Source: an uncultured archaeon
GTDB taxonomy: Archaea; EX4484-52; JAADEF01
Assembly: GCA_964407715.1 (NCBI GenBank)
Contig: CAYOWP010000001.1
Location: 16,622-80,621, forward strand
Direction: 5' to 3'
DNA length: 64,000 nucleotides
Position numbers and translations under genes: made by a program. Shown here one piece after another: positions 1 through 64,000 of the stretch (positions are counted from its first letter, which is position 1; every line of letters starts with the position of its first letter). The notes under the pieces were generated by a model. It saw only the letters and a program-made list of their open reading frames with translations, ran no database searches and was not told where the DNA came from.

Positions 1-388
1 CAAGAGGTTACCATGCTGCAATGTGGTTGTGAAAGGAATTTCCTCCCGTTAACCATATTTTATCTTAAAATAACTGGTTAAGGGGAAGCATAGCCATTCA
101 TTCGGCGTATCACAGCATCTAACCTTTTCAAGAGGTTAGAGAGCATCTAACCTTTTAAAATGGTTACCATGCTGCAATGTGGTTTGATAAGAGTTTTCCC
201 CTTAACCAGTTATTTTAAAAAATGGTTAACGGGAAGCGTAGCCTCTCAAGAGAGCATATCAAAGCAGCTAACTTTTCTAAGCGGTTGAGAAGCACCTATC
301 CTTTTGAAGTGGTTACAATGCTGTGAGGTGGTTTGAAAAAGCATTTTTCCGTTAACCAAATTTTCAAAATACATTATTGGGCAAAATC
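1..388. repeat. Structured intergenic repeat array, locus A (module 1 units in reverse orientation, truncated by the window start)
   Basis: Repeated arms tggttaaggggaagcatagcc / ttccccttaacc and inner palindrome partners ggcgtatcacagcatctaacc ... ggttaccatgctgcaatgtgg. About 2.5 units. Ends with gttaaccaaattttcaaaatacattattgggcaaaa, as at 12180. Confidence 0.85.
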
Positions 389-4429: not shown

Positions 4430-5181
4430 GAAGATATGTAGATTTAATGATTTGTCCTGAAAGTAAGGATGCTCTGAGAGATATGCTCGCATTTATTGAC
4501 AAAATAAAACTTGAGGTAATGGGGATTTGCGTTAATGAAGAGAGCGCTAAGGAAATGATCGAATACATGGTTAATGAGTCATTAATTGATAGATTCATAA
4601 TTTTTTATATGATAAAGGCAGAGGAAATAGAGGAGTTCAGGGAGAAAAAAAAGAAATTTATAAATCAAATGAAAAAATATAAAGGTGTTAAGGCATTGAT
4701 CTTAGAATCTCGTAATTATAAAGTTTTGAGATATGCCGTTGATAAAAGAGAAGTTGATGCTTTATACAATCTTCCGCTATCCTTTAAGATGTTTGGAGTT
4801 GATCAAGTGATTATAAAGTTATGCTCTGAGAAAAATATTGCATTGATTTTTGATTTTAATTCTTTCAAAAGGATGAGTAAAAATGAGAGAGTTGTTTATC
4901 TTAGAAATATGAGAAAGATATTGCAGATTGCCAAAAAATATGATACTATGAGCATAGCCGTATCTTGCGCTAGAAATGTAATGGAAATAAAGCATCCAAG
5001 GGATTTGGCATCTTTCTTCTATATCGTATACAGAAACCTCGAGTTTTCCCTTAAGTCCACATCAGATAATCCTTTACAGTTTTCTGATTTTATTAAAAAG
5101 TTAAATAATTCTAAGAGAGTATTACCAGGGCTATACATAATTGAGGATGATAGCAATGTTAAAGCCGAGTTTAAGAGATAA
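4399..5181 (+). CDS. rnp3: RNase P protein component 3 (Rpp30 family)
   Basis: Similar to archaeal Rpp30 over blocks KVLRYAVDKREVDAL, DQVIIKLCSEKNIALIFDF and HPRDLASFF. Overlaps the next gene. Confidence 0.6.
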   Translation: MVNWIGEFVMRRYVDLMICPESKDALRDMLAFIDKIKLEVMGICVNEESAKEMIEYMVNESLIDRFIIFYMIKAEEIEEFREKKKKFINQMKKYKGVKALILESRNYKVLRYAVDKREVDALYNLPLSFKMFGVDQVIIKLCSEKNIALIFDFNSFKRMSKNERVVYLRNMRKILQIAKKYDTMSIAVSCARNVMEIKHPRDLASFFYIVYRNLEFSLKSTSDNPLQFSDFIKKLNNSKRVLPGLYIIEDDSNVKAEFKR

Positions 5182-5515
5182 AAAAAGGTACATTATTGTG
5201 AAAATTTATGCGAAAGAGAAAGATGAAGAGATAAATATAGAGGACATTATCTCTGCTGTTTGGAAAAAGGCATATGAGTATGGTGGTTATGCTTATGTCT
5301 CCCTAAGCAATATGAATGTAATAAAGGATTTATATTTTAAGGAGAAGCATATTTTTGTGATTAGTGTCATGCCAAAATATGTGGAAGATTTAAGGTTTAT
5401 ATTGATGCAGGTTGATAAGATAAAGTCCTGGGATGTTACATTACATGTTCTTGGTGTGAGTGGCACAATAAAATCTGCTAAGGAGAAATATATAAATAAG
5501 GAGGAAGACATATGA
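5141..5515 (+). CDS. rnp2: RNase P protein component 2 (Pop5 family)
   Basis: N-terminal LKPSLRDKKRYIIVKI is typical of archaeal Pop5. Adjacent to rnp3. Confidence 0.65.
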   Translation: MRMIAMLKPSLRDKKRYIIVKIYAKEKDEEINIEDIISAVWKKAYEYGGYAYVSLSNMNVIKDLYFKEKHIFVISVMPKYVEDLRFILMQVDKIKSWDVTLHVLGVSGTIKSAKEKYINKEEDI

Positions 5516-6417
5516 TATTTCATTTTGGAAATTTGGAATCTCTATATTTTGGAATTATGTTGCTTATCGCTATTATTTTTTTATTGGTTGTTAGTTATTG
5601 TGATTTAAAAACATCTCTGATTGATATTAGAGCAGTTATTTTCTTTGATTGTTTAGCTTTAATTTGCCATGGTTTGTTTGCGTTCCTTCTTCATGAATAT
5701 AAATATATTCTTTTTGGTATCTCCTCTCTTGCAATTTTTCTTTTTATGGGGTATCTGTTGTATTTCTTTTCTAAATGGGGAGAGGGAGATGCCATTGTTT
5801 TGGGAAGCATATACTTCATATATCCTTTTCCTTATTTTGTTCCGTTGCACTTTGTTATTATTAACAAGGTCATATATTATTGGTATGTGCTATTTTTTAA
5901 TATTGCCATTTTTGGTGTATTTTATTCATTGATGTATGCTTTTATATTTTCCTTAAGAAATAGAGAATTCTATGCGCATCTTAAGAAAGAGCTTTCTTTA
6001 AAACATGCTTTTCTTGTGTTTCTTCTTGGAAGTTGTTTGGCTTTCGTGATGTATTTTTTTGTTGAATCATCTTATTATGTGATTGCTTTTCCGCTAATTT
6101 TATTTATATCTTACTTTTTTTATGTGTTTGCTAAGTTATCAGATGAGATATTATTTACAAAAAAAATAAAACTAAAAGATGTGAAAGAGGGAGATACTGT
6201 TCTTGGAACATTTAAAAAAGCAAATTTTGAATGCAAGAGATTAGATGCTATTAGTAAAGAAGAGATTGATGCCCTTATAAAGGCATATGGGCCAAATAAG
6301 GTAGTTGAGGTAAAGGATATGGTTAGATATATTCCCTCTTTTCTTTTTGGATTCATCTTTACTGTTCTCTTTGGGGATGCAATACTCTATTATCTTTCCT
6401 CCTTAATTATCGTTTAA
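5512..6417 (+). CDS. A24-family archaeal prepilin/preflagellin peptidase-like membrane protein
   Basis: Polytopic membrane protein with SYCDLKTSLIDIR (first catalytic Asp motif) and KWGEGDAIVLG (second Asp motif, GxGD-like). 4-nt overlap with rnp2. Confidence 0.55.
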   Translation: MIFHFGNLESLYFGIMLLIAIIFLLVVSYCDLKTSLIDIRAVIFFDCLALICHGLFAFLLHEYKYILFGISSLAIFLFMGYLLYFFSKWGEGDAIVLGSIYFIYPFPYFVPLHFVIINKVIYYWYVLFFNIAIFGVFYSLMYAFIFSLRNREFYAHLKKELSLKHAFLVFLLGSCLAFVMYFFVESSYYVIAFPLILFISYFFYVFAKLSDEILFTKKIKLKDVKEGDTVLGTFKKANFECKRLDAISKEEIDALIKAYGPNKVVEVKDMVRYIPSFLFGFIFTVLFGDAILYYLSSLIIV

Positions 6418-6450: not shown

Positions 6451-7131
6451 ATGATATCAAGCTTAAGGATTGTATCTAATAGAAAAGGATCAAATCCAGG
6501 AGGTTTTGCATATCTTAATGATCTCTATGTTTATGTGAAATACTCTTTTATTGGAGAAAATCTTACAGGTACTCCTTTAAAGGTTGAGCATCAACCAATC
6601 TATGAGTACATTACAGGGGAAATCTTGAAATTTTATGGGTTTAAAGTACCGAAGAGATATGTTATTGAGGGAGAGAGAATAAAGATAATTAATGAGATTA
6701 ACAATCCTGATTTCTATAAAAAGAGACCTTATTATTTATTATCTGTATATGTTAAATACGAGCCTAATGGCAAATTTGATATATCTCAAAAATGTATGCT
6801 AGATAAATTGGGGATGTGTGATATTATAGGAAAGGGAGATAATTATGGCATGATTGAGGAAGGATCCTTTATAATTATTGATTGCGGTTGTTCTTTTGTT
6901 GAGAGTGTAAACGGAAGAATGAGAGTTAAAGAGGAATATAAAAGAGCATATAATGAACAAAAAATAAAAATTAAATCAAGAAAGATAAAAAAGGAAATCT
7001 CAAAAATTATTAAATATATAGGGGATATCACAATAGATACCTATTTCTCAAACATTCCAATAAATAAGATTTTGAACAAAGACGAAATTGAATTTATCAA
7101 ATCCTACTATATATGGAAAATGTGCCAATAA
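6451..7131 (+). CDS. hypothetical protein (226 aa); weak small-kinase-like motif
   Basis: MCDIIGKGDNYGMIEEGSFIIIDCGCSF resembles the catalytic loop plus DFG region of Bud32/RIO-type kinases. Weak. Confidence 0.35.
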   Translation: MISSLRIVSNRKGSNPGGFAYLNDLYVYVKYSFIGENLTGTPLKVEHQPIYEYITGEILKFYGFKVPKRYVIEGERIKIINEINNPDFYKKRPYYLLSVYVKYEPNGKFDISQKCMLDKLGMCDIIGKGDNYGMIEEGSFIIIDCGCSFVESVNGRMRVKEEYKRAYNEQKIKIKSRKIKKEISKIIKYIGDITIDTYFSNIPINKILNKDEIEFIKSYYIWKMCQ

Positions 7132-7142
7132 TCTTGATAAAG

Positions 7143-7848
7143 AGTTTGTTAACGCAATAAGAATTTCTCCACCTATCAACCTCTTTATAATGTTACCATG
7201 CTACGATATGCTCTCTAGAGGAGGTATATTTTGCGTTAACTAAATTTTTATTTAAAAAATCTGGTTAACGCAAGAAATCGCTTTCCAATGCACATAGCAG
7301 CATGCTAACCGCTTTCAATGGTTAGCTGCTTCAATATGTTTTCTTGATGATATGCAGTTCTCCTTAACCAAATTTTCAAAAATAAAAAATGGTTAACGGG
7401 AAGCATAACCATCACTAAAAGGTTTGCAGCATTCTAACCTCTATCAATGGTTAGCTGCTGTGATGTGCTGAATGAATAGGTTATGCTTCCCCTTAACCAT
7501 TTTAAAAAATAATAAGATATGGTTAACGCGAGGAAATCCCTCTCATAAAAGGTTTGCAGCATGCTAACCTCTTGAAAAGGTTAGCTGCTTCCATACGCAA
7601 AATGAAAAGGTTATTTTTCCCCTTAACCATTTTATTTTATTTAAAAAATCTGGTTAACGCGAGGAAATCGCTTTTACAACCATATTGCTTTAAAATGGGT
7701 TAGCATGCTCCAAGGTGCTTGTGGAAGCGATTTTCTTCCGTAACCAATTAACAAATTCAGGCATTGTCCAATAATTCTTTATTGTTAAGCGGAAATTTAA
7801 CGCGCAAATAGCACTTTTTTTGTTAATAGAGAATTATCGGACAATGCC
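7143..7848. repeat. Structured intergenic repeat array, locus B (degenerate unit, 4 forward module 1 units, TIR mini-element at 7760-7848)
   Basis: Units ggttaacg(g/c)gaag...gcagcatgctaacc...ggttagctgcttc...ggttatgcttccccttaacc with AT-rich spacers. Terminal ggcattgtccaataattctttattgttaagcggaaa ... ttgttaatagagaattatcggacaatgcc inverted pair. Confidence 0.9.
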
Positions 7849-7895
7849 ACCAATTCAGTTAATTAAAATGTATTTTTAAATTTTACTTTTTTATA

Positions 7896-9730: not shown

Positions 9731-10288
9731 CTATTCCTCCGATTCTCTTCCTACAATATCAGTCACGCTAACAATAATAAACCCTATTGTTACTAATGTT
9801 ATAGTTATTGCAACAGTATATGGATCTATAACTATCCAGAAATCTCTAAACATATATCCTAAGGTTTCATAAAACAATATGAAAATCACAATCGTTATAA
9901 TACCTGCTATCACATATTTCAGCGTGTTATTCTGTTTAACAATATCTGTACCAAATTTTACTCCCAATATTGATAAGGTTAAAGGTATTAATAACAAAGT
10001 TACAGCCAATACACCCCACTTTGTAAATAACTCAGATAAGAACTCAGTTATTGTTCTTGTTTGAGGAGCATAATAAATAATCAAAGTAGCCATTGTTATT
10101 GCAAGTAATCTATTAATTCTCTCTACATTCTTTCCTTTCTCTTTACCAAATATGTTTACCCTTGATAATAAACCATAGATAATAACAAAATACAATAACC
10201 AAGGTAAAGCATAATCAAACAAGCCCATATCTTCAAAAATATAAAGCACATTCCCAATTAAGGATGAATCAAACCACCCATGAAACAT
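9731..10288 (-). CDS. polytopic membrane protein, copy 2 of a duplicated gene
   Basis: 185 aa with 4-5 TM segments. Nucleotide-identical to 10768-11367 except the C-terminus. Confidence 0.55.
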   Translation of the reverse strand: MFHGWFDSSLIGNVLYIFEDMGLFDYALPWLLYFVIIYGLLSRVNIFGKEKGKNVERINRLLAITMATLIIYYAPQTRTITEFLSELFTKWGVLAVTLLLIPLTLSILGVKFGTDIVKQNNTLKYVIAGIITIVIFILFYETLGYMFRDFWIVIDPYTVAITITLVTIGFIIVSVTDIVGRESEE

Positions 10289-10297
10289 TTTTACACC
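9753..10297. repeat. 545-bp perfect direct repeat, copy B (partner at 10832-11376)
   Basis: Line-by-line identity at a constant offset of 1079 nt. Confidence 0.9.
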
Positions 10298-10299
10298 TT

Positions 10300-10761
10300 T
10301 TATCCTGTCACAATTTCATAACTTTCAATTTCTATGCTGTTTTCTGGACATTCTTTGACTGTTATGGTAATGAGATCTATTTTATCTATTATACTTGAAT
10401 TTATTTTAAATGAAATTCTTTTTGTTACTCCTATATCCACTCTATAAGTGTTGTTTATCTCTTGTATATTTCCATTATGCCCAAATACCGAGATATTTGA
10501 TAATGTGAATGGTATTCTTCCTTGATTTTTAATGTACATCCTGAAATAGTTATCTCCTGTAACATTGAACTCCATTCCATAATATGAAAAATCAATCTTT
10601 TCACATTGCCTAATTTTGGTATATTGATTTTCATATTCCTCTGTTTTTCCTTTAACTAATGTTGAGTACCAACCTGAAAGAAAAAACCCAACACTTACAG
10701 CTATAACTACTAGCATTACAGCACCAACGTATGGTGAGATTCCTTTCATAGATGATTTCAT
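10300..10761 (-). CDS. archaeal type IV pilin-like protein with class III signal peptide
   Basis: MKSSMKGISPYVGAVMLVVIAV: KG|ISP cleavage-site motif followed by a hydrophobic helix. Confidence 0.6.
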   Translation of the reverse strand: MKSSMKGISPYVGAVMLVVIAVSVGFFLSGWYSTLVKGKTEEYENQYTKIRQCEKIDFSYYGMEFNVTGDNYFRMYIKNQGRIPFTLSNISVFGHNGNIQEINNTYRVDIGVTKRISFKINSSIIDKIDLITITVKECPENSIEIESYEIVTG

Positions 10762-10767
10762 GATATC

Positions 10768-11367
10768 TCACTCTGTTTCTTTCTTTTCTTCCTCTTCTCC
10801 CTCCTCTTCACTTTCTTCTGATTCCCTACCCACAATATCAGTCACGCTAACAATAATAAACCCTATTGTTACTAATGTTATAGTTATTGCAACAGTATAT
10901 GGATCTATAACTATCCAGAAATCTCTAAACATATATCCTAAGGTTTCATAAAACAATATGAAAATCACAATCGTTATAATACCTGCTATCACATATTTCA
11001 GCGTGTTATTCTGTTTAACAATATCTGTACCAAATTTTACTCCCAATATTGATAAGGTTAAAGGTATTAATAACAAAGTTACAGCCAATACACCCCACTT
11101 TGTAAATAACTCAGATAAGAACTCAGTTATTGTTCTTGTTTGAGGAGCATAATAAATAATCAAAGTAGCCATTGTTATTGCAAGTAATCTATTAATTCTC
11201 TCTACATTCTTTCCTTTCTCTTTACCAAATATGTTTACCCTTGATAATAAACCATAGATAATAACAAAATACAATAACCAAGGTAAAGCATAATCAAACA
11301 AGCCCATATCTTCAAAAATATAAAGCACATTCCCAATTAAGGATGAATCAAACCACCCATGAAACAT
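10768..11367 (-). CDS. polytopic membrane protein, copy 1 (acidic C-terminal extension)
   Basis: Identical to 9731-10288 plus a C-terminal SEEEGEEEEKKETE tail. Confidence 0.55.
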   Translation of the reverse strand: MFHGWFDSSLIGNVLYIFEDMGLFDYALPWLLYFVIIYGLLSRVNIFGKEKGKNVERINRLLAITMATLIIYYAPQTRTITEFLSELFTKWGVLAVTLLLIPLTLSILGVKFGTDIVKQNNTLKYVIAGIITIVIFILFYETLGYMFRDFWIVIDPYTVAITITLVTIGFIIVSVTDIVGRESEESEEEGEEEEKKETE

Positions 11368-11376
11368 TTTTACACC
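10832..11376. repeat. 545-bp perfect direct repeat, copy A (partner at 9753-10297)
   Basis: See the partner entry. Confidence 0.9.
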
Positions 11377-11384
11377 CTATCTAA

Positions 11385-11939
11385 TTAACTTACAGGCAAA
11401 AGATCAGAGATTGTGGCTACAGGAGTATCAAATGCAGGCCATCCACCATAAGGTTTAGCTATAAGTGCGGTGATGCCTTCACATTCTGTATATAATCTGA
11501 TTTTATCTAAATCATTATCATCTGAGATTTTCAACTCATCATATGGAAGAGTAATATTTACATCTATATATTTGCTTTCATCTTTGTTCAAAGAAATTGG
11601 ATTTTTGAGATTATACACCCTTGATCCCTTTCCTGATGTGTCATATATTTGTATTTGGGTTATTGCAATAGGTTCAAGACCGTTATTAACAACATAAGCC
11701 TCTACTATTACATCTCCATTATATGAGGAATTAAGCCGAGAGAATTCGTTTCTCACATCTATACTTGCATAGCTACACTCTATTTTCTTCTGCCCTTCTT
11801 CAACCTTCTCCTTACTTGATTTCGTGATATTTGTTACCCATGCTGTTATAAGAGCCCCTACTGCCATAGTAAATGCTATTAAAAGCACAGCAGCAACCAA
11901 TGGAGATATAGCCTTATATATGTTTTTTTCCCTTAACAT
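11385..11939 (-). CDS. archaeal type IV pilin-like protein with class III signal peptide
   Basis: KA|ISPLVAAVLLIAFTMAVG N-terminus. Confidence 0.5.
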   Translation of the reverse strand: MLREKNIYKAISPLVAAVLLIAFTMAVGALITAWVTNITKSSKEKVEEGQKKIECSYASIDVRNEFSRLNSSYNGDVIVEAYVVNNGLEPIAITQIQIYDTSGKGSRVYNLKNPISLNKDESKYIDVNITLPYDELKISDDNDLDKIRLYTECEGITALIAKPYGGWPAFDTPVATISDLLPVS

Positions 11940-12049: not shown

Positions 12050-12370
12050 AAGTATGCTCAATAATTCTTTATGGTTAAGCGGAAAGTATACCTTATCAAT
12101 AGCACATCAAAGCAGCCAACACTCTTGAAAAAGGTTAGCATACTGCAAAACTTTAGGTAAAGATATGATTTCTGTTAACCAAATTTTTAAAATACGTTAT
12201 TGGACAAAACTGGAATTGTCAAAAAATTTTTGATGAAGGTCTGTTAACAAGAAAACTTATTCTTGCAATCGCATTAGCTCTCTAAGGTTTGCTTTCTCTA
12301 ATACGCTTCTTTAAAAGGTTACTTTTCCGCTTAACAAAATTTTGTTAATAGAGAATTATTGGACAATGCC
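12050..12370. repeat. Composite module 2 element bounded by TIR-like ends, locus C
   Basis: Left gctcaataattctttatggttaagcggaaag, right ttgttaatagagaattattggacaatgcc. Interior aatcgcattagctctctaaggtttgctttctctaatacgcttcttt is homologous to 63560-63610. Confidence 0.85.
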
Positions 12371-12425
12371 GACAAAACTGGCTTTTCATAAAAATATATA
12401 ACTATGTGTGAAATAAATTATTAAT

Positions 12426-12965: not shown

Positions 12966-13018
12966 AAATTTTTAGTTTTTTATATGTTTATTTATATTCT
13001 ATGAGGACAAGTTATTAT

Positions 13019-13093
13019 GGGACCGTGGGGTAGCCTGGACTAGCCTTCCACCTTGGGGTGGTGGCGACCCGCGTTCAAATCGCGGCGGTCCCA
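13019..13093 (+). tRNA. tRNA-Pro (anticodon GGG)
   Basis: Acceptor GGGACCG/CGGTCCC, anticodon arm CCACC-TTGGGGT-GGTGG, T-arm GCGCG-TTCAAAT-CGCGC. CCA not encoded. Confidence 0.8.
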
Positions 13094-13230
13094 TCATTCG
13101 AATTTGTGAAATTTTTATCTAAAGAGCAATCGATTTATTTTTGTTTTAATGAAATCTATCCTCAATCTTCTTTGATAGATCAATAGACCCTTTCATTTTG
13201 CAATATCTTCAACTAAAGCAAATAAAATTT

Positions 13231-14625
13231 TTAATAACCGATTGCAATAAAACTCCATTTACTAGGACCAGCACGTTGGAATCCATTGTAAAATCTAAAT
13301 TGTGATAAGGAGGTAGGATAATATACCCAATTATCTTCGTATTCATCTGCGTCATAAGGTTTACCGGTAAAATCAGAATTTGTTTTAGGAGTCACAACTA
13401 ATGAAAAAAATTGGTGAGTAAAAGAAATCGGCAGATTAATTAATCTAACCGATGATATAGGACAATAGAATTCCCCCCACTGAATGATTAAACCATTTGA
13501 AAACTTTATATATCCATTGGTAGATAAAGAAGAATCTATAATCCCTCCTCCTTCCGGCCAGCTAGTTCGACAATCATTGCCAATACATAAGCCATCTCTT
13601 CCTTTGACATAACCAGCAACATCTAATTTCGCTTGTGGATTTGTTGTACCTATACCTACATTACCATTTCCTTTTATAATTACTTTATCATCCCCAGCAA
13701 TTTGAAATCGAATATTGTCGCTATCTTGTTCGTTATTAATTACCACATCTTTTCTATCAGATCCATAATCACGTAATCCAAACATTGCTAAATCTGAATC
13801 CCAATGAACAGTGAAACCTCTAAATTTACCAGAGGGAATTTGGCTTCCACCACAACATGTAGGATCATATCGACCGATATATTGATGTGCATTTTGATCA
13901 AAAATCTCTAATTTTGACTGTGGATTTGGCGTCCCTATGCCAACATTACCATTATTTTTAATAACAAACATATCCCACTGAGTAACTCCGCTATCAGAAG
14001 TATATCCAATAGTAATCCTCTCCTGACCACTTGGATTTCGAATATGCCAATATCCAGAACCAGCAGTTCTTTCTAAGGTAATCCAATCTCCATTTCCTTG
14101 TTTGATTCCAAGTTTACCATGTGGAGATGTTGTTCCTATACCTACTTTACCTGTGCTAACATCCACAAACAATTTCCCACTTCCAATGTTAAGATTTCCT
14201 GATCCTGTAATAGAACCAGAGATTTTTATATCTCCACTAACATCCAACTTTGCTGTTGGTGAAGCTGTCCCTATTCCAACTCTTCCAGTGCTAACATCCA
14301 CAAATAACTTTCCACTACCGATGTTCAAGTTACCTGATGCGATAATAGCGCCAGCAGAGTTTAATCCGCCTACATTGATTGTGTGCGTAGTGGTGGCTCC
14401 ATTGTTTGTTATGTCTTGTAATGTATCTTCTATGATTCCAGCATCTATCCTTCTATTCTCGTCTGCATCAATGGTTGTTAAATCACTTTTAGTTTTTGCG
14501 ATTTGCGAGAGATAATGCCATGGTCTTGTTATGTCAACTTTTACAGCTAATGCTATGGAATATAAAAGCATAAGCGTTATCAAAACCTGAATTCCTATTG
14601 ATATGAGTTTTTGTGAGCGTTTCAT
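13231..14625 (-). CDS. secreted beta-helix repeat protein (tail-fibre-like GxxGIGTxxPxxKLDV repeats)
   Basis: Signal/TM N-terminus and repeats GSGNLNIGSGKLFVDVSTG(R/K)VGIGT(A/T)SP, GNVGIGTPNPQSKLEI, GNVGIGTTNPQAKLDVAG. Internal nucleotide tandem repeat 14133-14205 vs 14268-14340. Confidence 0.55.
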   Translation of the reverse strand: MKRSQKLISIGIQVLITLMLLYSIALAVKVDITRPWHYLSQIAKTKSDLTTIDADENRRIDAGIIEDTLQDITNNGATTTHTINVGGLNSAGAIIASGNLNIGSGKLFVDVSTGRVGIGTASPTAKLDVSGDIKISGSITGSGNLNIGSGKLFVDVSTGKVGIGTTSPHGKLGIKQGNGDWITLERTAGSGYWHIRNPSGQERITIGYTSDSGVTQWDMFVIKNNGNVGIGTPNPQSKLEIFDQNAHQYIGRYDPTCCGGSQIPSGKFRGFTVHWDSDLAMFGLRDYGSDRKDVVINNEQDSDNIRFQIAGDDKVIIKGNGNVGIGTTNPQAKLDVAGYVKGRDGLCIGNDCRTSWPEGGGIIDSSLSTNGYIKFSNGLIIQWGEFYCPISSVRLINLPISFTHQFFSLVVTPKTNSDFTGKPYDADEYEDNWVYYPTSLSQFRFYNGFQRAGPSKWSFIAIGY

Positions 14626-15866: not shown

Positions 15867-15912
15867 AAAAGTAAATTTTATATTGAATTAATTTTTTAAA
15901 AAGACACAAAAT

Positions 15913-16193
15913 GGATAGGTTATGTTTTCCGTTAACCATTTTTAAAATAATTGGTTAACGGGAAGCATAACCTATCCAAAGCATATTGCAGCAAGGTATC
16001 CTTTCAAAAAGGTTAGCTGCTTCAGTCTGCTGGATAAAAGGGTTATGTTTTCCGTTAACCAAATTTTTATTTTAATGAAAAATGGTTAACGGGAGGAAAT
16101 CGCTTTCTCAAGGCACATTAGAGCATGCTAACCCTCTACAAAAGGTTAGCTACTTCAATACGCCAAATGAAAGGGTTATACTTCCCGTTAACC
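15913..16193. repeat. Structured intergenic repeat array, locus D (two forward module 1 units plus a perfect 25-bp hairpin)
   Basis: GGATAGGTTATGTTTTCCGTTAACC-15 nt-GGTTAACGGGAAGCATAACCTATCC, then gcagcaaggtatcc...ggttagctgcttc...ggttatgttttccgttaacc, then ggttaacgggaggaaatcgc...gagcatgctaacc...ggttagctacttcaatacgc...gggttatacttcccgttaacc. Confidence 0.9.
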
Positions 16194-16254
16194 GATTATT
16201 TTGCATAAATAAAAAATAGAAAAATTTTTTAATTTATGTGAGAAAGGAAGATTT

Positions 16255-18723: not shown

Positions 18724-18770
18724 ACTTAAGATTTTAAATATGTTGACCTTATAGTATTGAGCAGCAAACT

Positions 18771-18874
18771 TTGTTAACGGGAAGCATAGCTTTATACAAA
18801 GGGTTAACTGCTCTCATACACTTCTTTGAGAGGTTATGTTTCCGCTTAACAATAAAGAATTATTGGACAATGCC
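18771..18874. repeat. Intergenic repeat, locus E (module 1 left arm plus module 2 right TIR)
   Basis: ttgttaacgggaagcatagc ... ttatgtttccgcttaacaataaagaattattggacaatgcc. Confidence 0.85.
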
Positions 18875-18907
18875 TGACCTTATATAACTGCAGAAACTTA
18901 TTTAAAT

Positions 18908-21622: not shown

Positions 21623-21742
21623 TTACTAAAGACTCTATATCAAGTTTCTCTTCTTTTTTGCTTTTTTTCTTTACTATCACCATAAAATCCCCTATTATCT
21701 TATATGTTTGTGGTTATATATATAATTTAAAGTAAAAATTTT

Positions 21743-22240
21743 GGTTAACAGGAAAAATCCATTTTACAACCACATTGCAGCGTGATAACCTTTTTATTTT
21801 TGGTTATCTGCTTTGCAATGAGCTTTTTAGCAGATCCTGTTTCCTGTTAACCATTTTTGTTTTGGTTAACGGGAAACATACCTTATCGAGAAACCACATT
21901 ACAGCATCTAACCATTCTAAAGAGGTTAGCATGCTGTAATTTGGCTTTGAAAAGCGATCTCTTCCCGTTAACCATTTTTGTTTTGGTTAACAGGAAACAT
22001 ACCTTATCGAGAAACCACATTACAGCAGCTAACCCTTTAAAGCGGTTAGCATGCTGTAATGTGCCTCGGAAAAGTGATTCTCTCCCGTTAACCAATTTTT
22101 ATTATTTTTTAAATTGGTTAACTGGAAACATACCTTTTTCATTTGAGGTATTAGAGCAGCTAACCTTTCACTTGGGTTAGCATGCCGCAAGAGCTTTATG
22201 ATAGCGATTTCTTCCCGTTAACCATTTATCTGCGTTAACC
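21743..22240. repeat. Structured intergenic repeat array, locus F (about 4 units with fully palindromic inner cores)
   Basis: Near-identical units ggttaacgggaaacataccttatcgagaaaccacattacagca(t/g)ctaacc...ggttagcatgctgtaat(t/g)tgg...cttcccgttaacc-atttttgtttt. Creates spurious ORFs 21857-22180(+) and 21883-22095(-). Confidence 0.9.
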
Positions 22241-29551: not shown

Positions 29552-29619
29552 AATCTCACCTCACATAATTATTATAAAATCTTAAAATTATATATAATTT
29601 AATTTTGTTTTTATAGGGT

Positions 29620-29754
29620 GAGCATTGTCCAATAATGTGTTTTGAGAAATTTTGTTAACGGGAAACATAGCTATATTTAAAGGATTAAACTGCTATAAGT
29701 GTTATTTGCGCGTTAAGTTTCCACTTAACAAATGGAGGATTATTGGACAATGCC
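29620..29754. repeat. Complete small module 2 element with about 60-nt TIRs, locus G
   Basis: gagcattgtccaataat...ttgttaacgggaaacatagc...ctataagtgttatttgcgcgttaagtttccacttaacaa...attattggacaatgcc. Overlaps the annotated 5' end of the next ORF. Confidence 0.85.
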
Positions 29755-30754
29755 TATAAGGTGCAAATTTATGGTAACATCCATAGAAAAGAGTATAAAT
29801 CACTTTGTAGATTATTTCAAAGAAGCGTTTGAGATGTATAAAAACATAGATGTGGAAGATATTAAAAACAAATTCTCTTCAAATAAAGAGATTATCATTT
29901 GTGGTATGGGAGGTTCTGGAATAGCAGGCATGATTGTTGAGCGTTTATTCGAAGATAAAAATATCATAGGAATGACAACAGATGAAATACCTAGCAAATA
30001 TAAAGACGCAAATTTTATATTGGTCAGCTATTCTGGGAATACACATGAGGTATTAAATGCGTTTGATAAATATAAAAATAATGTAGTGTGTGCTATAACA
30101 ACAGGAGGTAAATTAAAAGAAAAATGTGAAAACAATGGAATAAAAGCTTTTGAATTACCTTCGGGATTTATCCCCAGAAGTACATTACCCCATATGATCG
30201 TATTGCTCTCTTATATTCTTAATAGACTAGGCGTAATTTCTGAATCAGACATAGAGAAAATAAGGGAAGCTATTAATGAACTTGAAGTTGTGAAAGATAT
30301 GCTTTTGAATAATGCTAAAGAGATTGCAAAAAACATAAATCATGATGATATTTTAGTATTTCTTACATCCTATACCTTATATCCTGCAGCATACCGAACA
30401 AAAACTCAAATAAATGAAACTTGCAAAATGCATTCATATGCAGAGTTTTTTTCTGAGCATAATCACAATAGTATAATGGCTATAAAGCAACATGTTAAAA
30501 ATGTTTTCTATGTAATATATAAAGATCCATTTGATAATCAACTCAAAAAAAGGTTTGAGTTCTTTATTAACAAACTTAGAGGATTTAGATATAGATATGT
30601 GGATATAGAGATAGAGGCAAAAAGCAGAGAAATGGCTATGCTATCATATATACTATATGGAGATTATTTAAGCGTTGAAATAGCAAAAAGGTTTAATATA
30701 GATATGGAAACAGGAGATATTATCAAGGAGTTAAAAGAATTTTTGAATGGATAA
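29732..30754 (+). CDS. bifunctional phosphoglucose/phosphomannose isomerase (SIS domain)
   Basis: CGMGGSGIAG and VSYSGNT SIS motifs. The first 7 codons lie inside the repeat, so the true start is probably M7 (29750) or later. Confidence 0.65.
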   Translation: MEDYWTMPIRCKFMVTSIEKSINHFVDYFKEAFEMYKNIDVEDIKNKFSSNKEIIICGMGGSGIAGMIVERLFEDKNIIGMTTDEIPSKYKDANFILVSYSGNTHEVLNAFDKYKNNVVCAITTGGKLKEKCENNGIKAFELPSGFIPRSTLPHMIVLLSYILNRLGVISESDIEKIREAINELEVVKDMLLNNAKEIAKNINHDDILVFLTSYTLYPAAYRTKTQINETCKMHSYAEFFSEHNHNSIMAIKQHVKNVFYVIYKDPFDNQLKKRFEFFINKLRGFRYRYVDIEIEAKSREMAMLSYILYGDYLSVEIAKRFNIDMETGDIIKELKEFLNG

Positions 30755-30869
30755 ATATTTGATTAACCTAAAAATTGCTCTCAAAAAGGATAGTGTGCTA
30801 TGATATGCTTTTTGGGATATTTAATCTTTCAAGTTTTACTAATAGAAAGCTATTGGACGATGTTCATTT

Positions 30870-31115
30870 TTGAAAGGAAGAATAGAAGAACTGGGGCGTT
30901 ATAATAAAAATTTTGAAGGATATATCATAAAGATAGATAACATCGCCTCTTTTATTTCTCCTAAATTAAAGGATTTCTTATGGAGAAGAGGAGAGAAATA
31001 TAGAGATATTGACCCTCGAATACCATATAACTATAAAAGATATGGAAATGAGCTAAATGAAATCTATTGGAAAATTCTATCTGAAAAGAAATATTCTTCT
31101 GTTAACCAAAAATAA
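30870..31115 (+). CDS. small hypothetical protein (81 aa); its 3' end runs into a repeat
   Basis: The ORF terminates inside ctgttaaccaaaaataa of locus I. Doubtful. Confidence 0.25.
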   Translation: MKGRIEELGRYNKNFEGYIIKIDNIASFISPKLKDFLWRRGEKYRDIDPRIPYNYKRYGNELNEIYWKILSEKKYSSVNQK

Positions 31116-31358
31116 AAAATGGTTAAAGGGAAGCATAGCCTATTCATTTGGCATGTTGAAGCAACTAACCTTTCATAGAGGTTAGCATGCTGTAATGTGC
31201 CTTGTAGAAGGGATATTCTTCCGTTAACCTTTTATTTTAAATAAAAAATGGTTGGGTGAAACATAACTTCTTAAGAGAGTATGTAACAGCAGCTAACCTG
31301 CTTAGAAAGGTTAGCTGTCTTGATATTCTGAATGAAGGGAGTAGCCTTTTCGTTAACC
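31099..31358. repeat. Structured intergenic repeat array, locus I (two reverse module 1 units)
   Basis: ggttaaagggaagcatagcc...gcatgttgaagcaactaacc...ggttagcatgctgtaatgtgcc...cttccgttaacc, then a second degenerate unit. Confidence 0.85.
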
Positions 31359-31380
31359 TTTTTCATCAAATTTTTTGATG

Positions 31381-40513: not shown

Positions 40514-40547
40514 TGTTTCACATCAACAAATTTCTCAAGAGAAATTT

Positions 40548-40809
40548 GGTTAACGAGAAAGCATCTTTTCCAAGAGGTTTAGAGCATGCTAACCATTGAA
40601 AAAGGTTATGTGCTGCAAGTCGGTTTTTGATATTGGGCATCTTCCCATTAACCAAATTTTCTAATAAAAAACAATTGTTAACAGGAAAATATCGATATTC
40701 TCCAGTGAATGCGGCATGCTAACCTTTTGATAAGGCTAGGTGCTGTAAATGTGCCATTTGAATGGCTATACTTTCCCTTAACCAATTTTAAATAAAAATT
40801 GTTAACGAG
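40548..40809. repeat. Structured intergenic repeat array, locus J (two degenerate forward units)
   Basis: ggttaacgagaaagc...gagcatgctaacc...ggttatgtgctgc...cttcccattaacc, spacer, ttgttaacaggaaaat...gcatgctaacc...ctttcccttaacc. Confidence 0.8.
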
Positions 40810-40819
40810 AAATATCATT

Positions 40820-50462: not shown

Positions 50463-50532
50463 ATTCAGAAGGGCATCAGAAAATTTTTGAAATTGTAAAG
50501 GATTTCATGGTTGAAAGATTACTTTCTTCATA

Positions 50533-50615
50533 ATCGCTATGAAGTGTTAAACCGCTATAAGTGCTATTTGCGTGTTATGTTTCCGCTTAACAATAGAGAA
50601 TTATTGGACAATGCC
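50533..50615. repeat. Solo module 2 terminal repeat, locus K
   Basis: ccgctataagtgctatttgcgtgttatgtttccgcttaacaatagagaattattggacaatgcc. Confidence 0.8.
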
Positions 50616-50671
50616 TTTTTGAACCTTTATCTAAAAAAGTTATAAATATTTTCATTAATAAAATTATTTTT

Positions 50672-55754: not shown

Positions 55755-56612
55755 TCATATTAGCTCATCAAGAGGATTCCTAACTTTTCTTAATTCCTCT
55801 AAACTAACCTTGGTATATATTTGGGTGGTTTGTAAGTTGGCATGTCCAAGGAGTTCTTGGATCTTCCTTAAACTTTCACCTTGCTCCAACAAATGTGTTG
55901 CAAATGTATGCCTGAGTACATGAGGAGTTACCTCTTTTTGAATTGCTGCTTCTTCCCTTAATCTTTGAATAATCTTTTGAACCAATCTAACAGAAATGTG
56001 GTTTCTTTTATGCTTGGAAAAGAACACATAATCTTCGCCAACAAGATTATGCTTGTTGAAGTATCTTCTTAGAAGATCAACAATTTTCTCTCCTAAAACG
56101 ACAATACGATCTTTTTTCCCTTTTCCTCCCCTGACCCTTAAGATTCTTTCATTCAAATCAAAATCTTTAACTTTAAGATTAACCAATTCACTCACTCTTA
56201 AACCAGTGGAATAAAGGAGGAGGCATATCATTTTGTCTCTGTCTTTTTCAGCAGTATTGATGAGCCTTTTAACCTCTTCTCGCGTTAGCACTATTGGTAG
56301 CTTTTTGTCTCTTTTTGGTGTAGGTAAATCCTCTTCGCTAATTCTAAGGTTTTTGATTCTTTTTAAGTAGAAAACGATTGCTGCTTTAACTGCAGCAATG
56401 CTTGATGGAGTATAGCCTTCTTCATCTATAAGATATGATAGAAATCTCTTTGCAGAATCTACAGATATCTTTAATCCTTTCTTTTCAATGTATCTAAGAT
56501 ACATATTCACATGAATAAGATATGACTTCAAGGTTTGCTCGGTATATCCACTCAACAAAATCTCTGACCTAAGCTTCTCCAATTCCTGCTGAATCCTTTT
56601 ATTTGTTTCCAT
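55755..56612 (-). CDS. xerA: tyrosine recombinase XerA-like
   Basis: RVSE...HVLRHTFATHLLEQG...LLGHANLQTTQIYTKV (R-H-R-Y catalytic set). Confidence 0.75.
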   Translation of the reverse strand: METNKRIQQELEKLRSEILLSGYTEQTLKSYLIHVNMYLRYIEKKGLKISVDSAKRFLSYLIDEEGYTPSSIAAVKAAIVFYLKRIKNLRISEEDLPTPKRDKKLPIVLTREEVKRLINTAEKDRDKMICLLLYSTGLRVSELVNLKVKDFDLNERILRVRGGKGKKDRIVVLGEKIVDLLRRYFNKHNLVGEDYVFFSKHKRNHISVRLVQKIIQRLREEAAIQKEVTPHVLRHTFATHLLEQGESLRKIQELLGHANLQTTQIYTKVSLEELRKVRNPLDELI

Positions 56613-59932: not shown

Positions 59933-60600
59933 CGTTTAACCTTAAAAAGCGATTTGAAACAGATAACCTTTTTAAAGCAGTTAGCTGCTTAAAAAACCTT
60001 TGTGTTATTGAGATTTTCCCGTTAACAAATTAAAAATTTTTAATAAAAATGGTTAACGGGAAGATATCACTATCACAAGCACATTACAGCATGCTACCCT
60101 CTTAAAAAAGGTTAGCTGCTTGAAAACGCTAAATGAAAGGGTTATGCTTCCCGTTAACAAATTATTTAAAAAATAAAAAATGGTTAACGGGAGGAAATCG
60201 CTATCATATAAAGTTTTGCAAGCATGCTAACCTCTACAAAAGGTTAGCTGCTTCTTAACCGCTTTAGAAAGGTTAGCTGCTTCAATACGCCAAATGAAAG
60301 GGTTATGCTTCCCGTTAACCAATTATTTTAAAAATAAAAAATGGTTAACGGGAGGAAATCGCTTTCTCAAGGCACATCGCAGCATGCTAACCTCTTTTCA
60401 GGTTAGCTGCTTCAAACCGCTCGAGAAAAGGAGCTATGCTTTGATGCGCTATTGATAAGGTATGCTTCCCATTAACAATTTTTTAAATAATTTGGTTAAC
60501 ATGAGACCTCTCTTATCAATAGCACATTAAAGCATGGCATCCTTTCTTGAGCGGTTTGAAGCAGCTAATCTTTTAACCCTTAATTTGGTTAATATGCCGC
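59933..60600. repeat. Structured intergenic repeat array, locus L (largest; 4 forward units including one with a duplicated inner element)
   Basis: ggttaacgggaag...acagcatgctacc...ggttagctgcttg...gggttatgcttcccgttaac. A second unit carries ggttagctgctt twice. The third ends ...ggtatgcttcccattaac. The fourth is degenerate. Confidence 0.9.
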
Positions 60601-60666
60601 AACTTACAGATTGACAAAAAAATTTGATATAATTTTAAAAAATTATTTTTACATAATATAATCTTT

Positions 60667-61272
60667 ATGGTTAATTCCAAGATTTTTGATTTGCTTATTC
60701 AGGCAAACGCAATAGAGTTGGGAGGGCATTATGAGATATTTCCAAATACATATTCTCCAATATATTTCGATTTTAGGAAATTCTTTGAGAATCCAAGATT
60801 GTTTGATATCTTGACAGATTTACTTGCTGATGTGACAAGAGAAATCAATCCAGAAAAGATTGCCGGTGCTTTTACTTCAGGCATTCCATTAGCTACTGCT
60901 ATCTCTTTAAAAACCAACCTACCTATTGTTTTTGTTAGAAGACAGCCAAAGGAATATGGAAGCAGGGCAATGATAGAGGGTACGGTAAAAGAGGGAGAGA
61001 ATGTGATGATAGTGGATGATATCTTTTCAACCTTAAAAAATAATGAAGCATATATAAACGCGCTAAGATCAGCAAAGGCAAATGTAAGATACTTTTTGGT
61101 TATATTTGATTATGGCATGACACCACCAGAAAAGCTATTAGAGGCTGGGATAGAGGTTATCTCTCTTATCACTGCTAAGGATTTGCTAATAAAATTAGAG
61201 AAATGGGGCAAGATAACAAAGGAGGAAAGAATGGAGTATATGAGGATACTAAAATATTCCAAGGTGTTCTAA
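60667..61272 (+). CDS. type I phosphoribosyltransferase-like protein (OPRTase-like; PRPP motif degenerate)
   Basis: VMIVDDIFSTLKN in place of the canonical VDDVxTTGxT; OPRT-like N-terminus. Confidence 0.45.
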   Translation: MVNSKIFDLLIQANAIELGGHYEIFPNTYSPIYFDFRKFFENPRLFDILTDLLADVTREINPEKIAGAFTSGIPLATAISLKTNLPIVFVRRQPKEYGSRAMIEGTVKEGENVMIVDDIFSTLKNNEAYINALRSAKANVRYFLVIFDYGMTPPEKLLEAGIEVISLITAKDLLIKLEKWGKITKEERMEYMRILKYSKVF

Positions 61273-63420: not shown

Positions 63421-63501
63421 ATATTATCCAACCTCTTTATGATAATAAATTAAATATTAAATTTGAAATTTTTTATATCTTTATGGTTCTAATGGCTTTA
63501 T

Positions 63502-63650
63502 GGCATTGTCCAATAATTCTTTATTGTTAAGCGGAAACTTAACGCGCAAATAGCACTTATAGCAGTAATCGCATTAGCTCCATAAGGTTAGCTTTCTCTG
63601 ATGCGCTTCTTTGAAATGTTACTTTCATAGGGAATTATTGGACAACACCC
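63502..63650. repeat. Complete module 2 element with TIRs, locus M
   Basis: ggcattgtccaataattctttattgttaagcggaaacttaacgcgcaaatagcacttatag ... aatcgcattagctccataaggttagctttctctgatgcgcttcttt ... gggaattattggacaacaccc. Confidence 0.85.
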
Positions 63651-64000
63651 GGCTTTATTTCTATCTTAGTGTTGCATCCTTTGACATCTTCTCCAAATAA
63701 ATATCCCAACCATAAACGAGGATATCCGAGATAAGGTATTCTATAGATTACTTTTCCCTCTACATTCTCAATTGGTATTAGCCAAGGGTCAGGTTGAGAG
63801 TTATTATCTCCCCATGCAACCACATATTTATGCGAATCTTCAAGTAATTTCTTATATGCTCTATGAACTATCAACCTATCCTGAAGAGGCTCATAATATA
63901 CAATAATTGTAGAATTTGGATCCTTCCATTTTTCATTAGCAACAATCTCATCCCACGAGACACCTTTAACAATGATTACATCTCCTCTCTCCAATGTTGG
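63635..64000 (-). CDS. signal peptidase I (S26/Sec11-like), 5'-partial at the window edge
   Basis: The reading frame continues past the ORF's first Met to the window edge as ..PTLERGDVIIV (SM-PTL-GD box, truncated by the window end). A downstream WGDNNSQPD box is also present. Confidence 0.6.
   Translation of the reverse strand, partial: PTLERGDVIIVKGVSWDEIVANEKWKDPNSTIIVYYEPLQDRLIVHRAYKKLLEDSHKYVVAWGDNNSQPDPWLIPIENVEGKVIYRIPYLGYPRLWLGYLFGEDVKGCNTKIEIKPGVVQ

Follow-up and report, generated by a model that had tools for sequence, protein, structure and literature searches.

A dense two-tier family of palindromic intergenic repeats, probably derived from insertion sequences, in a DPANN archaeon

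What kind of DNA fills the gap at positions 59933-60603 of a 64,000-nt stretch of an uncultured archaeal genome (contig CAYOWP010000001.1), and how did it come to be there? This stretch, hereafter the window, carries an array of palindromic repeats at the focal locus, and a first-pass annotation had proposed that these repeats belong to one dispersed, modular, palindromic and intergenic family, built from a single type of unit and not recognised as a described one. Our profile matches bear out that there is one such family. However, it comes in two homologous tiers, which had been lumped together: L units, which form arrays, and solitary S elements, which are bounded by GGCATTGTCCAATAAT and flanked by 9-bp duplications and had been missed. 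We view the repeats as a family that is novel in sequence and unusually dense, similar to MITEs (miniature transposable elements with inverted repeats) and bacterial interspersed mosaic elements (BIMEs), and not as a new kind of biological system. On balance, we lean towards a lineage-specific, non-coding, palindromic repeat family of a DPANN archaeon, derived from insertion sequences (IS) and organized in two homologous tiers.

One repeat family in two tiers

Searches with single units (nhmmer), followed by a profile made from 20 aligned units (MAFFT), yielded 29 non-overlapping unit matches in the window. These fall on all 12 of the repeat loci previously proposed (2-368, 7143-7848, 12053-12370, 15905-16202, 18753-18874, 21730-22240, 29621-29754, 31099-31369, 40539-40810, 50493-50615, 59933-60603 and 63502-63649), whereas a possible remnant around 30780-30865 gave only a weak profile match (30769-30862, E = 0.009). 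The arm motif GGTTAACGGGARG, with at most one mismatch, occurs 22 times in the window where 0.02 occurrences are expected, and the inner pair GCATGCTAACC-N5-14-GGTTAGC seven times where 0 are expected. Together, the repeats amount to 3,807 nt, or 5.9% of the window, close to but below the initial estimate of 6-7%, and 3,765 of these nucleotides (99%) are intergenic. Repeats make up 58% of the intergenic DNA of the window and occupy 12 of its 17 gaps of at least 150 nt, in tandem, divergent and convergent gaps alike, bordered by housekeeping genes. Each arm contains the 6-bp palindrome GTTAAC, present in 43 copies in the window, of which only two (21563, 59793) are away from repeat loci or their edges. 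In contrast, the 8-bp palindrome GGTTAACC that the first-pass annotation had assigned to the arms has zero occurrences in the window. An apparent avoidance of GTTAAC outside the repeats (2 copies in the window, with 11.6 expected) did not recur in 120 kb from other loci (18 copies, with 20.8 expected), and looks like sampling noise, not a restriction-site or recognition-site signal.

As for the S tier, a second conserved motif, GAATTATTGGACAATGCC, and its inverse are found at locus ends. S elements are solitary, 90-250 nt long and bounded by the 16-18-bp terminal inverted repeat GGCATTGTCCAATAAT, inward of which come TCTTTA and then the arm variant TTGTTAAGCGGAAAC. All six S elements in the window have 9-bp flanking direct repeats, with 8/9 or 9/9 matches. 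For three of these (C2, E and K in the list below), the degenerate left end was set by eye with the duplication in view, and they are therefore supporting cases, not independent tests. The unbiased set comprises nine S elements whose ends were both located by pattern alone, and in fixed register their flanks match at 8, 8, 8, 7, 6, 5, 3, 2 and 1 of 9 positions. A match of at least 7/9 is thus seen in four of the nine, while random 9-mers reach it with P = 0.006 per element, and one further element has a perfect 10-bp repeat with the register shifted by one nucleotide. Since the 9-bp flanks are target-site duplications, the S elements, which display both terminal repeats and duplications, are true MITEs. 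Every MITE property that could be tested is found in the S tier, and the partner IS is the missing piece. The window S elements are all promoter-proximal (6/6), and when there is a downstream gene the end of the element lies ~18-57 nt before the start codon. As a separate observation, at another locus (L087 10029-11396) an S element (11150-11396) is the immediate upstream neighbour of an Orc1/Cdc6 gene, which is the place where one would look for a replication origin in archaea.

The L unit, which is ~108 nt long, runs from GGTTAACGGGA(A/G)G to CTTCCCGTTAACC, and units are separated by AT-rich spacers of ~22 nt. Length is 105-109 nt in 47 of 57 measured units and 135-139 nt in nine, this longer variant having an extra GGTTAGCTGCT module and being scattered over many loci. 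The 13-bp inverted arms are GGTTAACGGGAAG and CTTCCCGTTAACC, and each unit contains four GGTTARC motifs in alternating direction (left arm forward, inner left reverse, inner right forward, right arm reverse). The unit is palindromic, as first described, but only imperfectly so, and it has a definite orientation. Its arms are unequal: AACGGG is conserved on the left, while the right arm reads CCCNTTAAC, with a variable partner position (G/C/A/T), and the pair is mismatched in ~40% of units. L arrays consist of 2 to ~9 units, head-to-tail, with a period of ~130 nt, and the orientation is the same in 27 of 32 adjacent pairs. There is no duplication around individual L units, direct flank matches being at the shuffled expectation and the flanks following the AT-rich consensus. 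The full outer repeat is almost never found on L units and is near-exclusive to solitary S elements. The S profile matches L units (E = 1e-12 to 1e-5), and in some S ends an L-type arm is found 17 nt inward of the outer repeat. The two tiers are therefore homologous, and L units look like S elements minus the outermost 10-16 nt.

L units are old, with a mean identity of 65% between loci and 69% between neighbours. Only 10 of 69 units share an array with their closest relative, the best inter-locus pairs reaching 84-86%, and the arrays are therefore mosaics of unrelated units. On the same figures, we rejected recent tandem duplication as the main source of the arrays, only a few neighbour pairs being recent tandem duplicates (86% at 21862-22106 and 88% at locus L097). 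Arrays probably grew mostly by addition of units beside existing ones or by inter-locus recombination or conversion, with occasional local duplication. Another possibility, that one large MITE with outer repeats at its borders contains the arrays as an internal minisatellite, is unsupported in general, because full outer repeats are carried nearly only by solitary S elements. The latter show a mean identity of 76%, and this higher likeness, along with recognizable duplications, is consistent with more recent mobility than that of the L units.

The repeat features of the window are as follows.

2-368, minus strand: L array A, three units within the window, two of them of the 135-nt variant; continues past the window start, with a full extent of ~1 kb and 8-9 units on ENA contig L125 (7252-8218)
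345-384: degenerate outer repeat of array A
7143-7755, plus strand: L array B, ~five head-to-tail units with ~22-nt AT-rich spacers; its left edge overlaps the stop of the open reading frame (ORF) 6451-7131
7760-7848: S element, 89 nt, internally deleted, both outer inverted repeats present; 9-bp duplication ACAAATTCA (7751-7759) / ACCAATTCA (7849-7857)
12053-12211, plus strand: single unit C1, variant outer repeats …CTCAATAATTC / …CGTTATTGGACAAAAC
12212-12370: S element C2, inserted in C1 at its right end; 9-bp duplication without mismatch, GACAAAACT (12203-12211 and 12371-12379)
15905-16202, plus strand: L array D, two full units and one right-arm fragment
18753-18874: S element E, degenerate left repeat, located 34 nt upstream of where eIF2-gamma starts; 9-bp duplication without mismatch, TGACCTTAT (18744-18752 and 18875-18883)
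21730-22240: L array F, four units, one on the plus and three on the minus strand; units 2 and 3 are 86% identical (21862-22106), a recent tandem duplication
29621-29754: S element G, with an L-type arm, GTTAACGGGAAAC, inside the outer repeat; 9-bp duplication TATAGGGTG (29612-29620) / TATAAGGTG (29755-29763)
30769-30862, plus strand: possible decayed half S element, weak profile match (E = 0.009)
31099-31369: L pair H, two units in opposite orientations, in the gap between convergent genes
40539-40810, plus strand: L array I, two units and an extra arm, directly after atpD
50493-50615: S element K, decayed left repeat; 9-bp duplication TTTTTGAAA (50484-50492) / TTTTTGAAC (50616-50624)
59933-60603: L array J, the focal locus, five to six units
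63502-63649: S element L, 148 nt, both outer repeats; 9-bp duplication TGGCTTTAT (63493-63501) / CGGCTTTAT (63650-63658)

In array J itself, a reversed fragment is accompanied by three units in head-to-tail order, of which one is the 135-nt variant. The last two units (60343-60603) are inverted relative to each other, share a private insertion of ~30 nt and jointly form a palindrome of ~170-260 nt.

Host, spread and a rearrangement

The window encodes eIF2-gamma, A-type ATPase subunits, RNase P proteins, deoxyhypusine synthase, Kae1 and form III RuBisCO, and has a GC content of ~32%. Its closest AtpB homologues among 185,579 species-representative genomes are 85-92% identical and belong to metagenome-assembled genomes (MAGs) labelled Nanobdellati or Nanohalarchaeota (DPANN); the host is a DPANN (Nanobdellati) archaeon. 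The same DNA is present in ENA assembly ERZ27248328 and in Logan assembly SRR7051321, and an identical eIF2-gamma is also recorded in NCBI and JGI. In the ENA and Logan assemblies, short-read contigs break inside arrays, contigs L123, L124, L125, L126 and L128 starting or stopping within arrays or S elements. The repeat family is probably a main cause of fragmented assemblies of this lineage.

Copies are not confined to this region, a test that the first-pass annotation had itself put forward. Although an exact 21-base core pattern has no match among the 185,579 reference genomes, it has 27 matches on 11 contigs of JGI metagenome Ga0190367, and the profile finds 129 unit matches in the Ga0190367 loci (at least 129 further copies), which with the 29 in the window makes 158. 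None of the Ga0190367 loci overlaps the window; therefore, the family is spread through the genome of this organism or of a very close relative, and is not a local artefact. Five metagenome matches to the core pattern outside Ga0190367 were dismissed as chance and show no unit match; at least three of them (L083, L103 and L104) are inside conserved coding ORFs.

Relatives lack the family wherever we looked. At the AtpB loci of the nearest MAGs, genes abut one another and there is no family match, nor is there one at the eIF2-gamma loci of relatives that are 81% and 72% identical. The family is thus missing at the examined loci of relatives with 72-92% marker-protein identity, whose genes are tightly packed. 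In the relative with an 81% identical eIF2-gamma, a 418-nt gap upstream of this gene (L129 500-918) holds AACCAATAACGGGAAGATAT, a 13-nt match to the L arm with no profile match at E ≤ 1, which could be either chance or a very diverged cousin family. Searches of phage and plasmid collections returned no match, and in viral contigs (IMG/VR) 16-mer matches are at chance level, with no element. In Rfam, only tRNA reaches the gathering score, the repeats matching no Rfam family, and we found no paper on such repeats or on the sample accessions. The earlier view that the family is unknown thus holds against Rfam, the phage and plasmid collections and the 185,579 reference genomes.

Comparison with relatives also revealed a difference in gene order. 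In two related MAGs (L002 8043-9271 and L004 9089-10317), atpD is directly followed by a homologue of the window ORF 60667-61272, but in the window the two are 20.1 kb apart (40514-60666). Array I comes immediately after atpD and array J immediately before ORF 60667-61272, so that repeat arrays mark both edges of a rearrangement. Within the 20-kb block there are a XerA-like gene of the integrase family (55755-56612), MoxR, form III RuBisCO and Kae1.

Known systems, candidate enzymes and rival explanations

Prokaryotic MITEs, such as SM1-SM4 of Sulfolobus and the Correia elements of Neisseria, share with S elements a small, non-coding, intergenic nature, terminal inverted repeats, target-site duplications and many dispersed, lineage-confined copies. 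In size, too, the multi-copy dispersed family is MITE-like (S elements 90-250 nt, L units ~108 nt, all non-coding). Unlike in MITEs, no partner IS was found and most of the family mass is in L arrays, without duplications or outer repeats. The first-pass annotation had thus pointed to the right neighbourhoods, MITEs on the one hand and repetitive extragenic palindromes (REPs) and BIMEs on the other, except that L units, having no duplications, are not classical MITEs. MITEs are abundant in some DPANN genomes, with densities of 146 and 105 per Mb, but in a survey of 183,232 genomes they account for at most 1.23% of any genome, the densest archaeon having 146 MITEs/Mb (PMC11602168). At ~5.9%, the window is several-fold above this maximum, and if it is typical there would be hundreds of units per Mb. 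Another relevant system is BrickBuilt of Porphyromonas gingivalis, a MITE with an internal minisatellite (PMC4596501), which is likewise species-specific and strictly intergenic, with a variable-length tandem body and small inverted-repeat ends. However, BrickBuilt consists of a 23-nt repeat without spacers, in 19 copies per genome, while here 108-nt palindromic units alternate with 22-nt spacers; moreover, BrickBuilt has terminal repeats, which the arrays here mostly lack.

Which enzyme could have moved the S elements? IS200/IS605 elements make neither inverted repeats nor duplications. The first-pass annotation had suggested an origin from this group, as palindrome-associated transposable elements (PATEs) mobilized by a Y1 enzyme. 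We rejected this, because S elements have both terminal repeats and 9-bp duplications, L units have inverted arms, and a tblastn search with IS608 TnpA (checked against PDB 2a6m) found no Y1/HUH homologue in 226 kb of this organism (best E = 0.65). Terminal repeats and 9-bp duplications therefore argue for a DDE transposase rather than an IS200/IS605 (Y1) origin. S ends begin with GGCATTG, which fits the GGnnnTG signature common to the IS6/IS26 and IS1 families, and archaeal IS6-like elements have 14-18-bp repeats, mostly starting with GG, and duplications of 8 bp, sometimes 9 bp (PMC6807381). S elements are alike in all these respects, with GGCATTG… ends, a 16-18-bp repeat (against ~14-18 bp) and a 9-bp duplication (against 8-9 bp). 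They differ in that only the ends are present here, with no transposase ORF found, and in that IS6 duplications are usually 8, not 9 bp. Our best guess is that the S-tier enzyme would be a DDE transposase akin to those of either IS1 or the archaeal IS6-like elements.

We propose the following mechanism. A transposase supplied in trans would recognize the 16-18-bp terminal inverted repeat GGCATTGTCCAATAAT, make a 9-bp staggered cut in an AT-rich target, mostly just upstream of promoters, and insert the S element, repair of the staggered cut leaving the 9-bp direct repeats. L arrays would be extended by targeted insertion or by inter-locus recombination or gene conversion, plus occasional tandem duplication, and L units would remain as selfish or neutral occupants of what is the sole dispensable DNA of a compact genome. 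Arrays may have side-effects, as recombination substrates and as hairpin-plus-T-tract sequences between genes.

Several observations weigh against this scenario. No transposase domain was found by Pfam in 30 window ORFs and 10 flanking or array-flanked ORFs elsewhere, there is no multi-copy ORF in ~190 kb, and no cognate autonomous IS or transposase, whether DDE or HUH, was found in 226 kb, so the enzyme assignment is based on end sequence and duplication length only. A recognizable duplication is missing in three of nine complete S elements. L units have no duplications and only rarely the outer repeat, so that the mode of spread proposed for them is tentative. The GGTTAAC and GGTTAGCTGCT blocks are >90% conserved despite a mean identity of 65%, which neutral decay does not predict and which may reflect ongoing recognition or selection, or ascertainment bias. 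Finally, the JGI contigs may come from the same strain or from a very close relative.

The main rival takes the L arrays as the archaeal counterpart of REP/BIME/REPIN sequences. GGTTARC hairpins would be recognized as single-stranded DNA by a HUH or other nuclease, a dedicated and possibly domesticated enzyme (RAYT/IS200-like, RAYTs being REP-associated tyrosine transposases) that spreads L units without duplications; the host would keep the arrays for termination, mRNA-end protection or protein binding, and the S elements would be a side branch with acquired ends. BIMEs are defined as extragenic clusters of a regularly spaced motif in alternating orientation (PMC2817692), and this is how the L arrays are built, being high-copy clusters outside genes in which a regular alternating motif recurs with a ~130-nt period. 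Like REP/BIME/REPIN sequences, which form hairpin doublets of ~90-110 nt, L units have no target duplication, and their unequal arm conservation recalls the orientation-defining imperfections of REP and IS608 hairpins, while the persistence of conserved blocks at 65% overall identity also speaks for recognition. At one locus (L085 4740-6361), a gene (5009-5737) for a 242-aa protein whose C-terminal domain is a winged helix (DUF7343 / TrmB-like) has L arrays on both sides, a layout that favours this rival inasmuch as it recalls RAYT genes flanked by REPs, but that could be coincidence. However, a REP is a 20-40-nt, GC-rich imperfect palindrome with a 5' GTAG-type tetranucleotide, and what we find is an AT-rich GGTTARC motif, without a GTAG head, four times within a 108-nt unit in an archaeal host. 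RAYTs are not known outside bacteria, the 226 kb searched hold no RAYT/Y1 gene, and the homologous S subfamily bears DDE-type repeats and duplications. We consider this rival unlikely. Quite doubtful, too, is its boldest form, in which the L arrays would be the first archaeal REP/BIME-like system, with a putative dedicated nuclease or recombinase, kept for a function by a genome-reduced DPANN symbiont. That function may be bidirectional termination or insulation between packed genes, or the arrays may be substrates for programmed rearrangement. It is because the motif blocks are conserved in old copies under strong deletion pressure that this form deserves mention.

Could the unit instead be a gene, or part of one, for a structured non-coding RNA of ~110 nt, with the spacer providing a TATA box and the T-tract after the right arm a terminator? 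Folded singly, units give long hairpins (z = -4.6 to -7.7), spacers resemble TATA boxes, T-tracts follow the arms, and G·U is in mild excess over A·C on one strand (136 vs 85). However, both strands fold equally well, the units take both orientations with respect to genes and occur in all three types of gap (convergent, divergent and tandem), and compensatory covariation, suggested to the eye by G-C to A-T swaps, had to be rejected. Among 48 aligned units, 80.3% of cells in the proposed structure pair, compared with 80.1 ± 0.4 when 3' partners are shuffled among sequences (183 of 500 shuffles reaching the observed value or more), the covariation score, 0.137, is the same as the mean of the shuffles, and RNAalifold finds almost no consensus structure. 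The best sub-threshold Rfam matches are generic miRNA-precursor hairpins, at 46 bits for a cut-off of 140, because of the palindromic inverted pair 60343-60603. The hairpin z-scores thus do not speak for selection on structure; what makes the unit palindromic is its conserved consensus, and a protein-read DNA motif fits better than a structured RNA, to which we give only a slim chance. In the next rival, the motif pairs would be recombination or binding sites for a tyrosine recombinase or a chromosome-organizing protein, with arrays as clusters of sites, not mobile DNA, the candidate site being the inner hairpin (~13-bp arms, ~9-bp spacer) and the candidate enzyme the XerA-like protein encoded at 55755-56612. 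The 13-9-13 layout of the inner hairpin, in which the spacer measures 9 ± 1 nt, conservation in sequence and not structure, and the 20-kb synteny break with an array at each edge and an integrase-family gene inside are all in line with it. Against this, the spacers in known tyrosine-recombinase cores are 6-8 bp long, nearly all archaea have Xer-type genes, so that the presence of one is uninformative, hundreds of sites per Mb would be hazardous, and the S elements show transposition, not site-specific recombination, which makes this rival very unlikely. As for an assembly artefact or a degenerate CRISPR array, we see next to no chance of either. Short-read contigs do end within arrays, but identical arrays are present in independent assemblies and the family is on 11 further contigs. 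CRISPR had already been set aside in the first-pass annotation, rightly so, as the palindromic units are 108 nt long and diverged (only 65% identical), the AT-rich ~22-nt spacers are generic and non-unique, and there are no cas genes or domains in the scanned ORFs.

Neighbouring observations and significance

Two other features of the window deserve mention. At 9731-11367, there is a near-perfect tandem gene duplication, in which ORFs 9731-10288 and 10768-11367 are 100% identical over 188 residues and a 300-nt stretch (repeat family D4) is 98% identical; no repeat element is found at its edges, and such a duplication is unusual in a compact genome. Beside a tRNA-Pro gene, a 464-aa ORF (13018-14625) has a C-terminal domain like phage tail-fibre gp53 (PF21882, E = 4e-11) and internal repeats of ~98 nt (14122-14354), with a homologue fragment at L002 9274-10269. 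This ORF may encode a surface or adhesion protein, or it may be what is left of an integrated element.

DPANN archaea have genomes among the most compact known. While the genes of the relatives of this organism have almost no spacers between them, here repeats take up ~6% of the sequence and most of the DNA between genes, and, if the family is an IS-derived one as we favour, a streamlined symbiont can tolerate a burst of selfish DNA. Contigs that end in arrays offer an explanation for the fragmented short-read assemblies of such lineages. The two-tier design, with MITEs on one side and homologous arrays on the other, would make this family a tractable case for how BIME-like arrays arise from transposon ends.

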